From NCBI RefSeq assembly GCF_000007185.1, contig NC_003551.1, positions 870,001 through 902,000 of the forward strand: a stretch of 32,000 nt of DNA. The letters are read 5' to 3'. Positions 884-22,306 of this stretch are shown here, one piece after another. Both the position numbers and the translations under genes were made by a program. The stretch's first letter is position 1. Each line of letters opens with the position of its first letter. The notes under the pieces are model-generated. The model was not told the DNA's origin, searched no databases, and saw only the letters and a program-made list of their open reading frames with translations. The DNA comes from Methanopyrus kandleri AV19 (lineage in GTDB: Archaea > JAADCQ01 > Methanopyri > Methanopyrales > Methanopyraceae).

Positions 884-3003
884 GCTCGGCTTTGGTGTCG
901 TTCCCATGCCACGTAGTGTAGTGTGGTGTGTTTTCCGTCGGTCTTGACGAGCATGTAGGGGCCGATGGGACAGGTTTGACCCTCCCGACCGTCCACCGCC
1001 CAGAACGGAGCCCAAGCCCAAGGAACAACCACGAATCGATGACCCCGCGAATCCAACACGTACCTATCGTTCGACACCCGGTGTAGAGCGTCATGAATTG
1101 GGCTGAGCTTCACGCACGACTCCTTGACCAGTTTCTTGACTATTGGAGAGTGTAGCGGGTGGTGTACGGGACCTAGAACGTGGACGTGGTGTGTTATCCT
1201 CCTCAGTCGCCGCACTACCTTCGACGGGGGTTCAGCGTCGAAAGCCCTACTGGAGTAAACTACGATCACTTCTTTCGCTTCTTTTGCCAGCTTCTCAGTT
1301 TCAGGATAGCTCAGCGCCTCTGAGTCTACTATGAGTATATCTCCCGACCACGGTATTTGCTCGGCGGATAATGACTGCCCACGTTCTACATTATACGGTC
1401 GTATCAGCGGTATCATCGGAAAGTGTCCGGTGGGAGCACTTCTAACTAAGTTAAGCCACAAAAAGCTATAATCAGTGTATGATCCTATGTATATCACTTT
1501 GACACTTGTCATTGGAATTATATCCCACAATGACAGTGTTGGTTTTTGACTGAAAGTGAATCCAACGATGTCGGAGTAGCTTCTAATAGTCTTAATATCG
1601 GCTCCATAATCTACACTTGTTAGCGGTAAGAGAGTCAAAACTTTGCGTGCGATATCTTCATCAAAAAGGTGACGCTGACCTGGATGTGCTAGTTGTTCAC
1701 AGCATTCTCTACCGCCGCTATTGAGGAATAAAATAGAAGACAGTATTCGTGAGCTTACTTCGGAGCATCCTTGGTAAAATGCACCTCCTAAAATGTATGT
1801 TGGACGTTCAGATAATGTGCTTAATGGGCATGCTAATGAGAATAATCCTAAATGGGCATTGGATGCCCTATAATCATGCGAAACGATTGCAGGTGAGGAA
1901 AACTCGTATTCAACAACAATTGGAATCATTGGTGTGGGGCTTATAACTTTTAATATGATGCCTACGCTAACAAGAGCAAATATTGCAGAATATGTTGTGA
2001 GAGACAATTTTATCTTAGAGAATATTTTGGGGGTGATTACAATTATGAGTGTGCACGCTATTAGCGGCATTCTGTACATATCAAGTTGTGTTAATATCTT
2101 TGATATACTCAATATGATATAATGAATCTTAGGTGATAGAAATACTGCTAGTCCAAATAACGGAATTAATCCTATTGTTCCAATTACAAACTTCTTCTTG
2201 TGTGAAATATTAAGCAAGAGTAGTGATAAAAATGTCATTGAAGTGACGACTATAGTCGCTAGTATGGTATCGTACACGTCAAATATTGAAAAACCCATCG
2301 TTGTAGATTCAGGCAAATTATCGAATTCTAACTTACCTACACTACTAGCGAATAATAATACTGGAAAAGTCACTATTATAGGTAGGAAGAAAATGGGACT
2401 GTCTAAAATCCCAGCTACTATCAGAGGAGGAATAGAGTAAATGAAATTTGAATATAATGAAGCTGTCCATAGTACGAAACTAAACATTCTCTTAATTGGA
2501 TCTTTCAATTTTGAGTTCCATATAATAACTGCTATCGCTGCTAGTGAATAAGACATCGTAGTAGCTATTCTAATGTATTTAACCTCGTAAAGAATTGCGA
2601 TAGGATATAATGCTAAGTATGCTAGTAATGCGATAGTTGCCTCGGCAGAGTTGAGATTGAGTATTTGCAATATGATCCACGCGATTATCGGAGCTAATCG
2701 TAAAAGTTCTTCTCCAATACAAGTTGCTAGAAAGATATCCTTTACCAAAAATTTATGGATTACTACTGGCACCATGAATGGTAATATGGGGTAATTAGCT
2801 AAAGGTGGTCGTCCTAAATATGAATACGGATCCCAATCAGAACCACTTAATCCATATTTTTCTATCAGATATGATTTGAGTGATTGTATTGCTAAATCTA
2901 AGTAGATAATATGTTTGCCTAAATCTGGTGCCTCATATTCTACTATGAAATTAAGGATAATTATCATTACAATAGCCAGAATGGTTGTAATTCTGATTTC
3001 CAT
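784..3003 (-). CDS. 739-aa polytopic membrane protein with soluble C-terminal domain and terminal TM anchor (surface-glycan assembly role guessed from context only)
   Basis: Long uninterrupted ORF. The N-terminal ~370 aa is almost entirely hydrophobic helices, followed by a soluble domain and a final hydrophobic segment (VSLFLLAVSIAATAILISV). Last gene of a same-strand sugar-nucleotide/GtrA operon. No catalytic motif recognised. Confidence 0.7.
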   Translation of the reverse strand: MEIRITTILAIVMIIILNFIVEYEAPDLGKHIIYLDLAIQSLKSYLIEKYGLSGSDWDPYSYLGRPPLANYPILPFMVPVVIHKFLVKDIFLATCIGEELLRLAPIIAWIILQILNLNSAEATIALLAYLALYPIAILYEVKYIRIATTMSYSLAAIAVIIWNSKLKDPIKRMFSFVLWTASLYSNFIYSIPPLIVAGILDSPIFFLPIIVTFPVLLFASSVGKLEFDNLPESTTMGFSIFDVYDTILATIVVTSMTFLSLLLLNISHKKKFVIGTIGLIPLFGLAVFLSPKIHYIILSISKILTQLDMYRMPLIACTLIIVITPKIFSKIKLSLTTYSAIFALVSVGIILKVISPTPMIPIVVEYEFSSPAIVSHDYRASNAHLGLFSLACPLSTLSERPTYILGGAFYQGCSEVSSRILSSILFLNSGGRECCEQLAHPGQRHLFDEDIARKVLTLLPLTSVDYGADIKTIRSYSDIVGFTFSQKPTLSLWDIIPMTSVKVIYIGSYTDYSFLWLNLVRSAPTGHFPMIPLIRPYNVERGQSLSAEQIPWSGDILIVDSEALSYPETEKLAKEAKEVIVVYSSRAFDAEPPSKVVRRLRRITHHVHVLGPVHHPLHSPIVKKLVKESCVKLSPIHDALHRVSNDRYVLDSRGHRFVVVPWAWAPFWAVDGREGQTCPIGPYMLVKTDGKHTTLHYVAWERHQSRAYTVSLFLLAVSIAATAILISVRTTEGQAEGRS

Positions 3004-3563
3004 GTAAATACACCCGAGTATGCATTCTCGGGTAGCATACAGATTATGTTCCAGTTTCCTTGTATGAGTACTACTTCGATACCTTTAATTACTTCGCCTC
3101 TTCCTTTTGCTACTACGAGGCTATTACGTGTCGGAATTAAAAGTAAATCTTTTTCAATTTTAACAACATCTATGCAAGGGAATGATAAACAAATAGGGTT
3201 TGACGAAATACCATAGTAGGTGACAATCGGATTATCAGAGGATTTTGTTAAGTTGTCATAGTTTAGTGTAGGCAACATTGTAACAGGTGCGCCGATACTG
3301 ATCACTCCTACACGCTTCAAGCCATATAGCATTATTTGTCTACAGTTCACTACAGTTCGTGTTGGAAGATAAGTATTAATTGCAGGTCCTAGAACACTAG
3401 GGTACTGGAGTGTTTTAAGAAGATCATGTTCATCAAAATATGGGTATGTAACTTTCCCTTTTACTATTTGGTATCTCGGAATAGAGGCCGCGTAAGCGTT
3501 CACCAGTGCAAGTGTTGCGATCACCCCTGCGGCGATGGTTTTAATTTGTTTAGTACCCACCAT
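2967..3563 (-). CDS. small exported or membrane-anchored protein (start revised from ORF-track 3794)
   Basis: Internal ATG at 3563..3561 is preceded 5 nt upstream by GGAGGTGA. The product starts MVGTKQIKTIAAGVIATLALVNAYAA (N-terminal hydrophobic anchor). The upstream 77 codons of the track ORF overlap the preceding gene and look non-coding. Confidence 0.6.
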   Translation of the reverse strand: MVGTKQIKTIAAGVIATLALVNAYAASIPRYQIVKGKVTYPYFDEHDLLKTLQYPSVLGPAINTYLPTRTVVNCRQIMLYGLKRVGVISIGAPVTMLPTLNYDNLTKSSDNPIVTYYGISSNPICLSFPCIDVVKIEKDLLLIPTRNSLVVAKGRGEVIKGIEVVLIQGNWNIICMLPENAYSGVFTWKSELQPFWLL

Positions 3564-18424: not shown

Positions 18425-19117
18425 TTACTCACCCCCCATGATTAGCTCCTTGATGGCCTCGTCACCCGGCCAGATCGTCCTCGGGCACTGCGTGAAGCAC
18501 GCACCACACTTGATGCACCGGTTCTCGTTCACCACCGGTCTGCCGTCCACGATCTCGATCGCCCGCGTGGGGCAGGCCGCCGCGCAGGTGCCGCATCCCA
18601 TGCACATGCTCTTGTTCACCACGTGGTACATCAGGTCGCAGCCGCAGTACTCCGTCTTACCTTCCGCCAGCTTCGCGAACGGCTCGAGCAGCTCCTCTTT
18701 ACCCTCCAGAAGGAGCGTCAGGAACCGCTTGATAGCCTCGGGGGCTGGTGGACATCCCGGGACGGCGTAGTCGACGTCCGCCACCTCCGTGAGTGGCACG
18801 AACGCCTCGTGCGTGGGAGCCGCCTGCTGGTTCCCCCGCGAGAGTCGCATGAAGTTCCCCGTACTCGCGCACGCACCTAGTGCCACGATCGTGTCGGCGT
18901 GCTCCTCCAGCTCCTCCACTTCCTCCAGCATGTGCTCGTCGTTAAGGCACACCGCACCTTCTACTACGGCCACGTCGCACTCGGGGATCTCGCGCTCGTC
19001 CATGAGGGTCTGACAGTAGACCAGCTCGATGGAGTCCAGTATATCCAAAAGCCGCTCGTACGTGTCGGTTAACGACACCAGACACCCGCAGCATCCGGCC
19101 AGCTGCACGTAGGCCAC
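18425..19117 (-). CDS. fruG: F420-reducing hydrogenase gamma (small) subunit; start revised to GTG 19117
   Basis: The conserved small-subunit core starts at [17 protein letters not shown]-terminal 2x[4Fe-4S] motifs [12 protein letters not shown] and [12 protein letters not shown]. The 73 upstream codons of the track ORF (18425..19336) run through the fruA 3' UTR/SECIS and are P/F/G/R-rich low-complexity sequence. Confidence 0.8.
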
Positions 19118-19174
19118 ATCGCATGATGACCTCGGCGTACTCTTCGTTTTCGCCCTCGATAGCCTTCTCCACCA
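19116..19174. repeat. 59-bp perfect direct repeat, copy 1 (immediately upstream of fruG start)
   Basis: acatcgcatgatgacctcggcgtactcttcgttttcgccctcgatagccttctccacca is identical to 19450-19508. It extends to 63 bp with one mismatch (T19175 vs C19509). Confidence 0.9.
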
Positions 19175-19296
19175 TCGGACCAACCCAACACCCCCGAAGG
19201 GGAAGAAAGGTGGGAAGAACGGGAACGTCGGGAACGTAGGGTCAAGGGTGCCAAGGGTGAGGTGAGGAAACCGGCCCCCCACGTGGGGGGCGGTCG

Positions 19297-19331
19297 CGCC
19301 GCGGGTCCCCGTTTCGGGGTTCCCCGCGGCG
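19297..19331 (-). promoter_or_regulatory. archaeal-type SECIS element in fruA 3' UTR
   Basis: Minus-strand RNA 5'-CGCCGCGGG-GAA-CCCCG-AAA-CGGGG-A-CCCGCGGCG-3'. This gives a 9-bp GC helix, an asymmetric internal loop (GAA on the 5' side, A on the 3' side), a 5-bp helix and a 3-nt apical loop. It starts 19 nt after the TAA. Confidence 0.75.
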
Positions 19332-19350
19332 GTCATCCCGATAGTCGGTT

Positions 19351-20601
19351 TTAGGCGAGCTTAACTACCGACTCCCGGATCTTCTCCCGGGAGTCGGCGT
19401 CGCGGACTTCCTTCACCACGTGAGCGGCACACGATGCTCATATGTCGTAACATCGCATGATGACCTCGGCGTACTCTTCGTTTTCGCCCTCGATAGCCTT
19501 CTCCACCACCGGGAAGTTCCACGTGGAAGCCGCGATGATGCGATAGTCCTCGACGATACCCTTCTCGTTCACCTTAGCGATGTGCACGTTGGTGCCCCGT
19601 GGGGCCTCGTGAACTCCGATTCCGACTCCTGCCTTCGGCTCCCACTCGGCCAGGGTCTTGCCGCTGGTGTTGAGTTCATCCAGGATCGTCATCGCCCGGT
19701 CGATGGCCGCGAGTGTTTCCTGTGACCTTAACACGTGGATGTACAGGACTCCGCGTGGGTCCACCCCGTCGAAGAGTATGTACCTGGCTCTGGGTCCGAC
19801 TTCCACCGGAACACCGTCGTAAAGCGGGATCTGGCCCCGGTGCTGGTACGCGACTTCCTTGTGCTCCTCTCCGTAGTACTCGATCGGAAGCAGCTCCACC
19901 ACGCGGTCCATGTCCAGCCGGTCGGGATCCCCATAGGTGGGATGCGTCGCCAGGAACGGCTGGTCGTGTCTGCCGAACTCGTCGATGTCGAGGTCGTTCT
20001 CGTCGCCGAACCTCTCGACGATGTTCACCATGAACTCGTGCTGCTCCATCATCAGCTCGCGCGCCTCACGTAGCCTGCGGTAAAGCTTCCTACGCGCGGC
20101 TTCCGAGATGTTCTCGGCCATCCCTCCGATCCTGATGTTGGGTGGATGGATTCCCTCACCTCCGACCACGTCCACCACGTACTGTCCGATCCGCCTGATC
20201 TGCTGGATCCTCTTGACCGCCTCGACCTTCTCGCTCTCATCCTCAACGAAATCGTCCAGTACTAGCAACTGATGGAGCACGTGAGACTGAATCCTGTTAC
20301 CCAGGGCGCAGAGTTCCCGCAGGAGTTTCCCGTCCTTGGGAGGTTCGATGCCCATGGCCCGCTCGAAGGCCTCGGCGGATGCGGTTCCGTGCGTCGCCTG
20401 GCAGATTCCGCAGATCCTCATAACGGCCACCTGAACGAACTCCGCGGGCCTTCCCTTCGCCAGCGCTTCGAAGCCTCGGACCGCCGAAGTGTTCAGGTAA
20501 AACGCACGCTCCACGTAACCCTCGTCGTCGACATATAATACTAGCTTAGCGTGACCTTCATGTCTCGTGGTCGGTTGAATCTCCACGGCACCTTCCGCCA
20601 A
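19351..20601 (-). CDS. fruA: F420-reducing [NiFeSe] hydrogenase alpha subunit, selenocysteine at UGA 19438-19440
   Basis: TTG start with GGGGGTGAGG upstream. N-terminal Ni-site motif [10 protein letters not shown]. The track ORF ends ...[11 protein letters not shown]. Read-through gives U-ASC-AAH (DxUxxCxxH) plus a 22-aa tail and TAA at 19351-19353. SECIS lies just downstream. Confidence 0.85.
19450..19508. repeat. 59-bp perfect direct repeat, copy 2 (inside fruA, codons [19 protein letters not shown])
   Basis: Identical to 19116-19174, offset 334 bp. It ends 10 nt before the Sec codon. Confidence 0.9.
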
Positions 20602-20659: not shown

Positions 20660-22306
20660 GTGTTCAGTGATCGAGTAGAGGCACATTTAACGGTTGAATA
20701 CCCTGTCCGTCCGACGACGAGAGGGTTACGCGGATTGAGTCAAAGTGTCTTGATAGTAGACGCGCTGGGCGCAGGGAAGGGGTGGAGGACTAGATCCAGA
20801 GACGTTATCGGGGCGGGTCCTAGGACCGTCGCATCGCTACTGGAAAGTGATTATGAAGTATCGTTGATTACTTATGAAGATCTGCAGAAATTAGGACTAG
20901 ATAGTGTTATGGATTACGATACCGTAGGTGTCAGTATAATGACCGGCGACGAGCGGGCCGCCCGGAGGATGTTCGACCACACACGTTCTCGGACGTTTCG
21001 GTTCATCGGTGGTCCCGGAGCCGCCGATCCGAACGCACTCCTCAAGACTGGAGCCGACGCGGCCGTGATCGGTGAAGCCGAGGAGACCCTACCTGAACTC
21101 TTGGAGGAGCGTGGACCCGTCCGCGGCGTGTACTTCCGGAGGGGAACCGAGGTGGACTTTCCGGGTCCTAGGCCCATTTCCAGGCGATTCACCCGGGTCA
21201 ATCCGGAGTACATCCGTGCCTACGCACACCGATGGGCCGCACGCGTTTACGTCGAGATCGTCCGCGGGTGCAGCAACTCCTGCAGGACGACCTTCGAACT
21301 GCCCGACGGCCGCAAATGTTCGGGATGTGGGAACTGTCGGGAGGGTGAAGGTGGGGAGCGATGGGAATGTCCCGAAGGTATTCCACCGGGTTGCGGGTTC
21401 TGTTCGGTACCCTCGATCTTCGGGCCGACCAGGTCGAGACCGTTGAACGAAGTGGTGCGGGAAGTACGGGGGCTCGTCCGGGAGGGGATCCGTCGGGTAG
21501 TTCTCAGCGCCTCCGACGTACTGGATTACGGTCGGGGCGACTTACTGACTGATCCTCGGACTCCGCCCCCGAACGTCGAGGCCTTAAGGCGCCTCCTGCG
21601 ACGAACATCGAAGCATGTGGACGTGCTCTTCGTCGAGAACGTGAAAGCGTGCTTATTGAACCGTGAGATCGCGGAGCTCCTCGGTGAGTACTGCCGCGGT
21701 ACCTCGGTGAGCGTAGGTGTGGAGACGGGAGACCCGAGGCTGCTCCGCGCGATCGGGAAACCCTCCACGTTGAAGGAGGCGTTGCGTGCGATCCGTCTCC
21801 TGCGGAGGGCCGGTTTACGGCCTCATGCCTACTTCGTGTACGGACTACCCGGGCAGACGATGAAGTCCGCGAAACTCACGGCTAAAGCCATGAAACGAGC
21901 CGTCGAGATGGGAGCCGAGAAGATCACCGTGTACAGGTTCCGACCGATTCCCGCCTCGGCCTTCGGAGATTTCCCTCCGGGTCCCAGTCCACGTAACGAC
22001 GAGGCGAGCCGGCTCATTGCGGACACGGCGCGTCGTTTGAACGAGGCGCTGAAACGTAGGATGATCGGCAAGAGAATCCGCGTATACGTCGCCGAGCCCG
22101 ACCTACGCCGGCCTCGGGACGCGATAGGTTGGCCGGTGAAAGGTGGTCCGAAGGTTCGGCTTAAGGGAGCTCGGGAGTTAGTCGGCACGGAATGTGAGGT
22201 AGAAATCACGGGAGTAGTGTCGGACAAGGTGGTCTCGGGTAAAGTAGTGAGGATACTGGAAGAGATCGACGTGGAGGCGTTAGAGGGACGAGGGGTTCCT
22301 GGCTGA
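20660..22306 (+). CDS. radical SAM protein with N-terminal B12-binding-like domain and C-terminal TRAM-like domain; Cys-rich insertion inside the CxxxCxxC motif
   Basis: Rossmann-like N-terminus (VLIVDALGAG..., VGVSIMTG). VEIVRGCSNSC[37-aa insert]GFCSVPS. TIM-barrel-like middle region (VVLSASDV..., VSVGVETG). C-terminal IGKRIRVYVAE...GTECEVEITGV resembles TRAM. The true start is uncertain (possibly TTG 20750). Confidence 0.8.
   Translation: MFSDRVEAHLTVEYPVRPTTRGLRGLSQSVLIVDALGAGKGWRTRSRDVIGAGPRTVASLLESDYEVSLITYEDLQKLGLDSVMDYDTVGVSIMTGDERAARRMFDHTRSRTFRFIGGPGAADPNALLKTGADAAVIGEAEETLPELLEERGPVRGVYFRRGTEVDFPGPRPISRRFTRVNPEYIRAYAHRWAARVYVEIVRGCSNSCRTTFELPDGRKCSGCGNCREGEGGERWECPEGIPPGCGFCSVPSIFGPTRSRPLNEVVREVRGLVREGIRRVVLSASDVLDYGRGDLLTDPRTPPPNVEALRRLLRRTSKHVDVLFVENVKACLLNREIAELLGEYCRGTSVSVGVETGDPRLLRAIGKPSTLKEALRAIRLLRRAGLRPHAYFVYGLPGQTMKSAKLTAKAMKRAVEMGAEKITVYRFRPIPASAFGDFPPGPSPRNDEASRLIADTARRLNEALKRRMIGKRIRVYVAEPDLRRPRDAIGWPVKGGPKVRLKGARELVGTECEVEITGVVSDKVVSGKVVRILEEIDVEALEGRGVPG

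Follow-up and report, generated by a model that had tools for sequence, protein, structure and literature searches.

A 57-nucleotide insertion of fruA origin near the start of fruG in Methanopyrus kandleri AV19

Results

Organization of the fru locus

The window analysed here is a 32,000-nt stretch of the Methanopyrus kandleri AV19 genome (NC_003551.1, positions 870,001 to 902,000), and all coordinates below are window positions. It contains the fruA, fruG and fruB genes of an F420-reducing hydrogenase. The gene assignments made earlier from sequence alone were right: the products of the three genes score above all three curated equivalog cut-offs of NCBIfam (FruA against TIGR03295 frhA, 499.7 bits, cut-off 392.5; FruG against TIGR03294 FrhG, 413.2 bits, cut-off 245.5; FruB against TIGR03289 frhB, 420.3 bits, cut-off 331.5). 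The features of the locus, in the direction of transcription, are as follows.

19441..20601, minus strand: fruA, large subunit of the F420-reducing hydrogenase, with 387 codons between its TTG start (included) and the Sec codon (TIGR03295)
19452..19508, minus strand: source of the repeat, 57 nt of fruA coding sequence (copy 2 = 19450-19508), conserved as fruA coding sequence in all relatives
19438..19440, minus strand: in-frame TGA, selenocysteine codon, at the first-Cys position of the C-terminal nickel-binding motif, YDI-U-ASCAAH
19351..19437, minus strand: fruA C-terminal tail, 28 residues and TAA stop, from the translation
19297..19331, minus strand: predicted archaeal SECIS hairpin, from the fold (9-bp GC basal stem, GAA/A asymmetric internal loop, 5-bp apical stem)
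19189..19195, minus strand: fruG ribosome-binding site GGGGGTG, 5 nt 5′ of the TTG, conserved in relatives L001, L002, L019, L020 and L021
18425..19183, minus strand: fruG, 252 codons and stop from the conserved TTG, 19-codon insertion included (TIGR03294)
19173..19175, minus strand: ATG formed at the left insertion junction (CGA-TGG, the hyphen marking the junction), opening a 77-codon out-of-frame ORF (19175..18942)
19118..19174, minus strand: 57-nt insertion (copy 1 = 19116-19174) between fruG codons 3 (CGA) and 4 (GTG), from the DNA of relatives and the protein alignment
19115..19117, minus strand: GTG, ancestral fruG codon 4 from the DNA of relatives, and start of the RefSeq 230-aa model WP_394296049.1
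17505..18422, minus strand: fruB, F420-binding subunit (TIGR03289)

The predicted SECIS element (19331-19297) reads CGCCGCGGG-GAA-CCCCG-AAA-CGGGG-A-CCCGCGGCG. Its 5′ GAA lies opposite a single A in a kink-turn-like arrangement with G-C clamps on both sides, the defining motif of methanogen-type archaeal SECIS elements (PMC11881835), and it begins 19 nt 3′ of the fruA stop (19353-19351), in agreement with the expected placement in the 3′ untranslated region. Across five Methanopyrus-lineage sequences, pairing is maintained in 100% of the basal stem and 96% of the apical stem, with one compensatory pair, in L002; because most pairs are invariant across these five sequences, covariation support is weak. 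An Rfam scan of 18900-19700 returned only sub-threshold chance matches, and no Rfam family matched the archaeal SECIS.

A fruA segment repeated within fruG

Direct comparison reproduced the repeat noticed in the sequence-only reading. Positions 19116-19174 and 19450-19508 form a direct repeat identical at 59/59 nt with an offset of 334 nt, and the match can be extended to 63 nt with a single mismatch (19175 versus 19509). This is the sole direct repeat of at least 28 nt at >75% identity in the whole 32-kb window; by our own estimate, ~1e-27 perfect matches of 59 nt would be expected by chance in 32 kb. Copy 2 is fruA coding sequence, as had been stated, and is separated from the UGA (19440-19438) by 9 nt, not by 10. 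Copy 1 had been described as ending exactly at the GTG of the FruG core; its final two bases are in fact the G and T of that codon (19117-19115), and this terminal GT of the 59-nt repeat is a possible junction microhomology. The 275 nt between the copies had been equated precisely with the Sec codon, the tail and the SECIS. They hold more than that: another GC hairpin, 75 nt of pyrimidine-rich spacer, and the beginning of fruG with its ribosome-binding site and initial 9 nt.

Copy 1 had further been read as the fruG 5′ leader. A conserved ribosome-binding site and TTG lie upstream of it, however, and place it inside the fruG frame, between codons 3 and 4. The source in AV19 fruA is 19508-19452, and the net gain is 57 nt (19 codons) with no stop in the fruG frame. 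Of the four readings proposed earlier, that of a frameshifted FruG N-terminus came closest, but the change is an in-frame insertion without a frameshift. The 252-aa FruG predicted from the TTG at 19183 is identical to GenBank AAM02143.1.

The insertion is restricted to AV19

We read as DNA six other Methanopyrus-lineage loci and found the duplication in none of them (0/6). Five of these (L001, L002, L019, L020, L021) range from 94% to about 78% nucleotide identity; the closest insertion-free relative is only ~94% identical to AV19. Their junction is uninterrupted (TTG GTC CGA/G GTG GCC TAC, protein start MVRVAYVQL), strains KOL6 and SNP6 lack the insertion, and 12 FrhG proteins from other Methanopyrus-lineage genomes (233-235 aa) start with MVR[V/L/M]AYVQL or MVKLAYVQL and then run directly into the core. 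The empty site itself, CGA-GTG, is found in L019 and L021, and the AV19 insert is identical at 57/57 nt to the same-orientation template 334 nt upstream. Copy 1 agrees with AV19 fruA at positions where L020, L021, L001 and L002 differ; its template was therefore the fruA of AV19 itself, copied after the split from those lineages. The A at 19175 had been attributed to a mutation in the copied sequence, but L019 and L021 have it too, as the third base of codon CGA, and it is ancestral. It had been proposed that related genomes with the same junction and no duplication would point to a strain-specific accident, and this is the arrangement we find. In a metagenome scan, the matches were limited to distant methanogens and to the contigs from which L001 and L002 derive; no further AV19-like population appeared.

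The repeat is present in independent assemblies and read sets

The earlier reading had left room for an assembly artefact, and in one short-read contig, L015 (run ERR9765742), only a single copy is present: 334 bp are missing, and the remaining sequence encodes a 441-aa FruA-FruG chimera. An artefact of assembly or sequencing of the reference genome is nevertheless refuted by the other data, and we regard it as virtually excluded. Both copies, in identical flanking sequence, are found in the independent assembly GCA_013329715.1, which matches the window at all but 1 of 8918 bases. The copy-1/fruG junction is also present in short-read contigs of PRJEB52977 from three runs (ERR9765749, ERR9765747, ERR9765778). 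These three contigs start 30 nt (k-1) inside copy 1 and then run into fruG; a k-1 break inside a repeat is the pattern expected when both repeat exits exist. Public models of AV19 FrhG have 252, 230 and 303 aa, and the 252-aa and 303-aa forms, which come from two separate records, both contain the insertion; the 303-aa ORF is carried by GCA_013329715.1 only. The independent read sets represent essentially one strain (99.97-100% identity) and exclude an assembly error.

L015 is exactly the recombinant predicted if the two copies recombine, and it is otherwise identical to L014, including a shared difference at 22084. It could thus be taken to mean that part of the AV19 population lacks the 334 bp, with fruA destroyed, a 441-aa chimera in its place and the hydrogenase subject to a stochastic off-switch. 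We consider this very unlikely. The short reads behind L015 were assembled with a de Bruijn graph at k=31, in which the loop formed by a 59-nt repeat can be dropped during graph simplification, and seven other contigs of this project end at the repeat. The single copy in L015 is probably a k-mer assembly collapse. An exact look-up of the 387-aa truncated FruA gave no match, which fits short-read contigs breaking at copy 2.

Translation start of fruG

The arrangement GGGGGTG, 5-7 nt and a start codon recurs in the window, at fruA, fruG and fruB and at two further genes; at fruA, the ribosome-binding site GGGGGTGA precedes the TTG at 20601. The fruG GGGGGTG is predicted to pair at −12.5 kcal/mol with the 3′ end assumed for 16S rRNA. 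Upstream of the GTG at 19117, the only candidate is GAGGT, with a predicted −7.1 kcal/mol and a spacing of 10-11 nt. Predicted accessibility of the fruG ribosome-binding site at 95 °C is 0.48 with the insertion and 0.44 without it. To look for a role of the insertion in RNA structure, we folded the fruG 5′ region at 37 °C and 95 °C in its present form and with the insertion removed, and rejected such a role, as accessibility showed no meaningful shift at growth temperature. A Tat or other signal peptide in the insert was rejected by inspection: RR is present and a hydrophobic core is absent. An AlphaFold2 model of the 252-aa FruG from a 12-row alignment had a mean pLDDT of 37.6, too low for use. 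Literature searches found no account of the duplication, nor any mapping of transcript starts or N-termini for fruG of M. kandleri.

Discussion

Alternative readings of the repeat

The copies bracket the Sec codon, the tail and the SECIS, and the repeat had been suggested to be the scar of a recombination that installed or exchanged a selenocysteine cassette. The relatives refute this, and we give the idea almost no credence: the UGA and the tail are kept in all five relatives that cover the fruA 3′ end (matched SECIS in 4/5), and none of the six loci has the repeat. L001, L002, L020 and L021 share the Sec-codon TGA with AV19 and have the same tail and SECIS in place with the repeat absent. 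In Methanocaldococcus, too, fruA has its stop at the corresponding position and is followed by fruD. The interval between the copies includes the fruG ribosome-binding site and the first three fruG codons, which a cassette would lack.

Two further readings concern initiation at fruG. In line with the earlier leader idea, the start may have shifted to the GTG at 19117, using the GAGGT in copy 1 as part of a fruA-derived leader and yielding a near-native FruG (MAYVQL...). The position of GAGGT 10-11 nt upstream, the current RefSeq model (WP_394296049.1, equal to the 230-aa form) and the alignment of the TIGR03294 profile from residue 1 of that form all speak for it. Against it, fruG still has its strong, conserved ribosome-binding site and an in-frame TTG, both intact, upstream of this GTG; GAGGT is predicted to pair more weakly than GGGGGTG (−7.1 versus −12.5 kcal/mol), and it lies farther from its start codon than GGGGGTG does at the window's five clear sites. 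In L001 and L002, fruG codon 4 is CTC or CTG, not a start codon, and it is therefore not a conserved start. On balance we think this shift unlikely, although it deserves consideration. The ATG at 19175 and its 77-codon ORF (19175..18942) are both in the sequence as reported, and ATG is generally a stronger initiator than TTG, which counts for an upstream ORF that overlaps the fruG start out of frame and either modulates the translation of fruG or links it to the slow decoding of Sec in fruA. We judge such a role highly improbable, and the coupling of fruG to Sec decoding is unsupported. The ATG is absent from the loci of all six relatives (6/6), which excludes a conserved regulatory device, and it lies 12-13 nt from the ribosome-binding site (12 nt by the duplex measure, which gives 3-5 nt for the starts of fruA, fruG and fruB). 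The ORF runs 175 nt beyond the start of the fruG core, making reinitiation at fruG impossible, and its product matches no family and is absent from the protein collection. Its greatest effect would be to draw ribosomes away from the TTG.

In-frame copying of fruA sequence into fruG

We consider it very likely that the repeat arose in the AV19 lineage by in-frame copying of 57 nt of fruA into fruG between codons 3 and 4, and nothing points to a role of the repeat in Sec decoding. In such an event, 57 nt of the genome's own fruA (19508-19452) would have been copied and placed 334 nt downstream between the two codons. The junctions point to a possible microhomology-guided template switch or break repair: GT is matched at the right, and CCG is matched at the left with one mismatched base (A versus G) off the junction, matches of 2-3 nt that chance could also produce. 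The module that the copies enclose (Sec codon, tail and SECIS) is ancestral and took no part in the event.

As the insert comprises 19 codons and is stop-free in frame, fruG is still open from its native ribosome-binding site and TTG. Most likely, initiation occurs at this TTG and FruG is made with 19 extra basic residues at its extreme N-terminus, after MVR. An insertion would be both in frame and stop-free by chance with a probability of ~0.2 (1/3 × ~0.6), and its being so is therefore weak evidence of selection for the TTG frame. We infer that the insertion is tolerated and not useful. It is highly doubtful that the copies serve as an irreversible off-switch, with the Sec codon, tail, SECIS and fruG start lost together, or that the basic extension alters the assembly or location of FruG.

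Comparison with known systems

The Methanopyrus locus resembles the selenium-dependent [NiFeSe] fru operon of the Methanococcales in its FruA, FruG and FruB families, in the use of UGA for the first Cys of the nickel motif, and in a GAA/A kink-turn-like SECIS 3′ of the fruA stop. The gene order in Methanocaldococcus (L003) is fruA-fruD-fruG-fruB, whereas Methanopyrus has no fruD between fruA and fruG, and its SECIS therefore lies in the fruA-fruG intercistronic region. Compared with the Methanococcales operon, a 57-nt fruA fragment inside fruG is found in AV19 alone. The event is similar to microhomology-flanked templated insertions in being a short, perfect, same-orientation copy from a few hundred bases away, and in its lineage specificity; 2-3 nt are also shared at or near the junctions, a length that chance could give, and the left homology differs from the usual pattern in being offset by one mismatched base.

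A useful comparison is FrhG of Methanothermobacter marburgensis, which was misannotated with 275 aa and has its real start at a GTG at Val39. As in AV19, the models of the N-terminus conflict and N-terminal residues fall outside the ordered structure. Unlike the M. marburgensis case, the ambiguity in AV19 stems from a real insertion 3′ of the conserved start, and not just from an upstream open frame. In the cryo-EM map of M. marburgensis FrhG, the first seven residues are unresolved (PMC3591093). The extreme N-terminus of FruG corresponds to this unresolved region of the solved Frh complex.

Implications

The main value of these results lies in annotation and data hygiene. The insertion explains the three conflicting models of AV19 FrhG; of these, the 252-aa form is favoured, since it begins at the conserved TTG behind the conserved ribosome-binding site. 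The short-read contig with a probably collapsed repeat can be flagged as the source of a false 441-aa FruA-FruG chimera. It was tempting, but wrong, to tie the repeat to the way in which the selenocysteine module arose or is decoded. As read from the TTG, FruG of the type strain differs by a 19-residue N-terminal insertion from that of all other sampled Methanopyrus, which is relevant to the expression and modelling of this protein.

A selenocysteine-type fru operon in Methanopyrus kandleri AV19

Three genes on the minus strand pass the curated NCBIfam thresholds for FrhA, FrhG and FrhB, and exact-sequence look-up identified the FrhB and FrhG of the window as AAM02142.1 and AAM02143.1 of M. 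kandleri AV19. The fruA frame carries Sec at the position of the first Cys in the C-terminal nickel-binding motif. Three elements lie between fruA and the fruG ribosome-binding site:

19331-19297, minus: SECIS hairpin CGCCGCGGG-GAA-CCCCG-AAA-CGGGG-A-CCCGCGGCG, 19 nt past the fruA stop
19271-19292, minus: second GC-rich hairpin CGCCCCCC-ACGT-GGGGGGCCGG, 4 nt past the SECIS and followed by TTTCCTC
19196-19270, minus: 75-nt spacer running from the SECIS region to the fruG ribosome-binding site, 81% C+T, with short CACCCTTG / CGTTCCCG-like units

The first hairpin has a GAA/A kink-turn-like motif flanked by G-C clamps, the arrangement by which methanogen SECIS elements are defined (PMC11881835). 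It is nearly invariant across Methanopyrus-lineage sequences (n = 5), the most distant of which has one compensatory pair, and a search of Rfam gave no significant match for it. Overall, AV19 has an ordinary Sec-type fru operon, and its SECIS is of the canonical archaeal form. Equivalents of the second hairpin, which could stabilise the transcript, act like a terminator or extend the SECIS, are found in the related loci L001, L002, L020 and L021. The spacer holds several CCTC/CACCTC strings resembling the 16S rRNA 3′ end, and is likewise pyrimidine-rich with internal repeats in L001 (5879-5976) and L002. In Methanocaldococcus, fruD is located between fruA and fruG (L003 5439-5990; TIGR00130, 220.9 bits), whereas the Methanopyrus lineage has no fruD at that position (compared with window 19184-19350), so its maturation protease must be encoded elsewhere.

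A 57-nt segment of fruA interrupts fruG

The 59-nt perfect direct repeat described in the sequence-only reading was borne out by comparison of the copies: minus-strand 19174-19116 (copy 1, start of fruG) matches 19508-19450 (copy 2, within fruA) at 59/59 positions with an offset of 334 nt, lengthening to 63 nt with one mismatch (19175 versus 19509). The 32-kb window contains no second direct repeat of similar length or identity, which excludes chance as the origin of the match. Two boundaries need correction. Copy 2 ends 9 nt, not 10 nt, before the UGA (19440-19438), and copy 1 does not end exactly at the fruG GTG (19117-19115) but shares two bases with it. The 275 nt between the copies do hold the Sec codon, the tail and the SECIS, though not these alone:

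YDI codons, Sec codon, 28-codon tail and TAA stop of fruA
SECIS, second GC-rich hairpin and 75-nt pyrimidine-rich spacer
fruG ribosome-binding site and the first 9 nt of fruG

Loci of relatives were recovered by a genome-collection scan and exact-protein look-ups.

Methanopyrus-lineage fru loci compared with AV19
L019, M. kandleri-labelled MAG: about 94% nucleotide identity
L021, strain KOL6: about 91% nucleotide identity
L020, MAG: about 90% nucleotide identity
L001, MAG: about 82% nucleotide identity, 89% FruG amino acid identity
L002, Methanopyri MAG: about 78% nucleotide identity, 77% FruG amino acid identity

The duplication is absent from all five. In each, fruG starts with a G-rich ribosome-binding site (GGGGGTG), 5-7 nt and then TTG; the closest relatives read TTG GTC CGA/G GTG GCC TAC GTx CAG (MVRVAYVQ). 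AV19 keeps both the GGGGGTG site (19195-19189) and the TTG (19183-19181), and reads TTG GTC CGA (57 nt) GTG GCC TAC GTG CAG. Given the uninterrupted CGA/G GTG junction of the closest relatives, copy 1 is an insertion of exactly 57 nt (19174-19118) separating fruG codons 3 and 4. A19175, previously taken for a mutated copy of the source G, is then the third base of the ancestral CGA codon, as in L019 and L021, and the GT that closes the repeat comes from the ancestral GTG codon and represents junction microhomology. FrhG proteins from other Methanopyrus-lineage genomes (n = 12) are 233-235 aa long with MVR or MVK directly before the conserved core; the 19 extra residues occur in AV19 only. The L019 contig opens (1-60) with a string of low complexity, rich in A (GAGAAAAAAAAAAAAACAAAAAAAGAGG...), directly before the fruG spacer; it is probably assembly junk, occupying the place expected for the GC-rich SECIS region.

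Every relative keeps the copy 2 stretch as conserved coding sequence of fruA, which makes copy 2 the source. Over these 59 nt, L020 fruA has 3 differences from AV19 fruA, and the fruA genes of L021, L001 and L002 have more; copy 1 agrees with AV19 fruA at every one of these, so it was copied from AV19's own gene after the lineages split. The lack of any divergence between the copies since then indicates a probably recent event. A metagenome scan found no closer population, either with or without the insertion. The repeat is a lineage-specific templated insertion, probably flanked by microhomology, which is a known kind of mutation; literature searches found no earlier description of this fruA-to-fruG duplication. 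The suggestion that it is a scar of Sec/SECIS cassette installation is refuted, as the UGA, tail and SECIS are present in all compared relatives' loci that reach the fruA 3′ end, without the repeat.

The duplication in independent assemblies

An assembly artefact is ruled out by two sets of data. The independent assembly GCA_013329715.1 (L014), which matches the window except for 1 base in 8918, has each copy in place with the same flanks. In three runs, Logan short-read contigs (L016-L018) begin exactly 30 nt inside copy 1 and run on into fruG; as 30 nt is the k-1 overlap of a k = 31 graph branching at the repeat, they directly confirm the copy-1/fruG junction. There are four further similar Logan contigs; the sequence comparison rests on L016-L018. 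The runs come from the mock-community benchmark PRJEB52977 (PMC9652401), the DNA of which, judging by the near-identical contigs, includes AV19.

One contig of this project, L015 (DNBSEQ-G400 run), joins the fruA flank to fruG by only one copy and is missing the 334 bp. Its gene call at 2156-3481 is a 441-aa FruA-FruG chimera, with a truncated fruG call of 192 aa. L015 is otherwise the same as L014, including a common difference from the reference at 22084. Because seven other PRJEB52977 contigs end at the repeat, and because the segment that would loop out is rich in GC and strongly structured, we read L015 as a graph-simplification collapse, with a real deletion sub-population in AV19 as the unlikely alternative. 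Recombination between the copies, as had been predicted, would delete the Sec module, and L015 shows the form of that product, real or artefactual. At 22084 (gene-sense orientation) the window has T and both L014 and L015 have G, either a reference error or a change fixed in the strain stock.

The fruG start codon

Public models of AV19 FrhG (18425-19336, minus) use three different starts:

TTG 19183: 252 aa, GenBank/UniProt Q8TWV1
GTG 19117: 230 aa, current RefSeq
ATG 19336: 303 aa, TPA record; begins a little upstream of the SECIS hairpin, with the reading frame passing through it

The arrangement of GGGGGTG, 5-7 nt and a start codon is repeated across the window: it occurs at fruA (TTG 20601), fruG (TTG 19183), fruB (ATG 18422) and no fewer than two further genes (recorded positions 20601, 19183, 16486, 14197, 18422). 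In this GGGGGTG(A) site, G replaces A of the canonical GGAGGTGA, and the start is often TTG or GTG; both fruA and fruG start with TTG. Pairing was calculated with an archaeal 16S rRNA 3′ end that we take to be AUCACCUCCU.

Predicted 16S pairing at candidate fruG starts, with the assumed 16S end
TTG 19183: -12.5 kcal/mol, spacing 4 nt
ATG 19175, same ribosome-binding site: -12.3 kcal/mol, spacing 12 nt
GTG 19117, via GAGGT in the insert: -7.1 kcal/mol, spacing 10 nt

In the fruG frame the insert adds 19 stop-free codons (encoded residues, pI about 11.6), so the TTG frame is open and would yield the 252-aa protein annotated originally in GenBank. About 60% of 57-nt fruA windows are stop-free in off frames, giving a roughly 0.2 probability that an insert is in frame and open by chance; this would fit filtering by selection without proving it. 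At 95 °C the ribosome-binding site and TTG are predicted to be as accessible with the insertion as without it (0.48 vs 0.44). TTG 19183 is probably the main start, and a substantial contribution of GTG 19117 to initiation seems rather unlikely.

Coupling of fruG translation through an upstream ORF from ATG 19175 is unsupported: this ATG is a by-product of the junction, is missing from the relatives and is poorly spaced. Its ORF extends 175 nt beyond the fruG core start, so at most it would compete with the TTG. The proposal of a frameshifted fruG N-terminus holds in part, in that the N-terminus is altered and fruA-derived sequence is read in a different frame, while the insertion itself is in frame. 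In the cryo-EM structure of M. marburgensis Frh, FrhG in fact begins a few residues ahead of the core, and its first seven residues could not be resolved (PMC3591093); by analogy, a flexible N-terminal extension of FruG is plausibly tolerated. Structure prediction of FruG was too poor in quality to inform.

For the fruG ribosome-binding site, the predicted unpaired probability rises from 0.23 at 37 °C to 0.48 at 95 °C. A potential CCCC-UUCG-GGGG hairpin (19191-19202, minus) overlaps it, and in all five relatives a run of C, a loop of 4-8 nt and a run of G occupy this position; it may be a conserved structure masking the site.

Artefactual proteins like the L015 chimera can enter large assembly-derived protein collections. 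The insertion has little general interest, and is useful in practice as a caution on k-mer assemblies around short repeats and in start-codon annotation, with the FruG of the type strain now known to be atypical.
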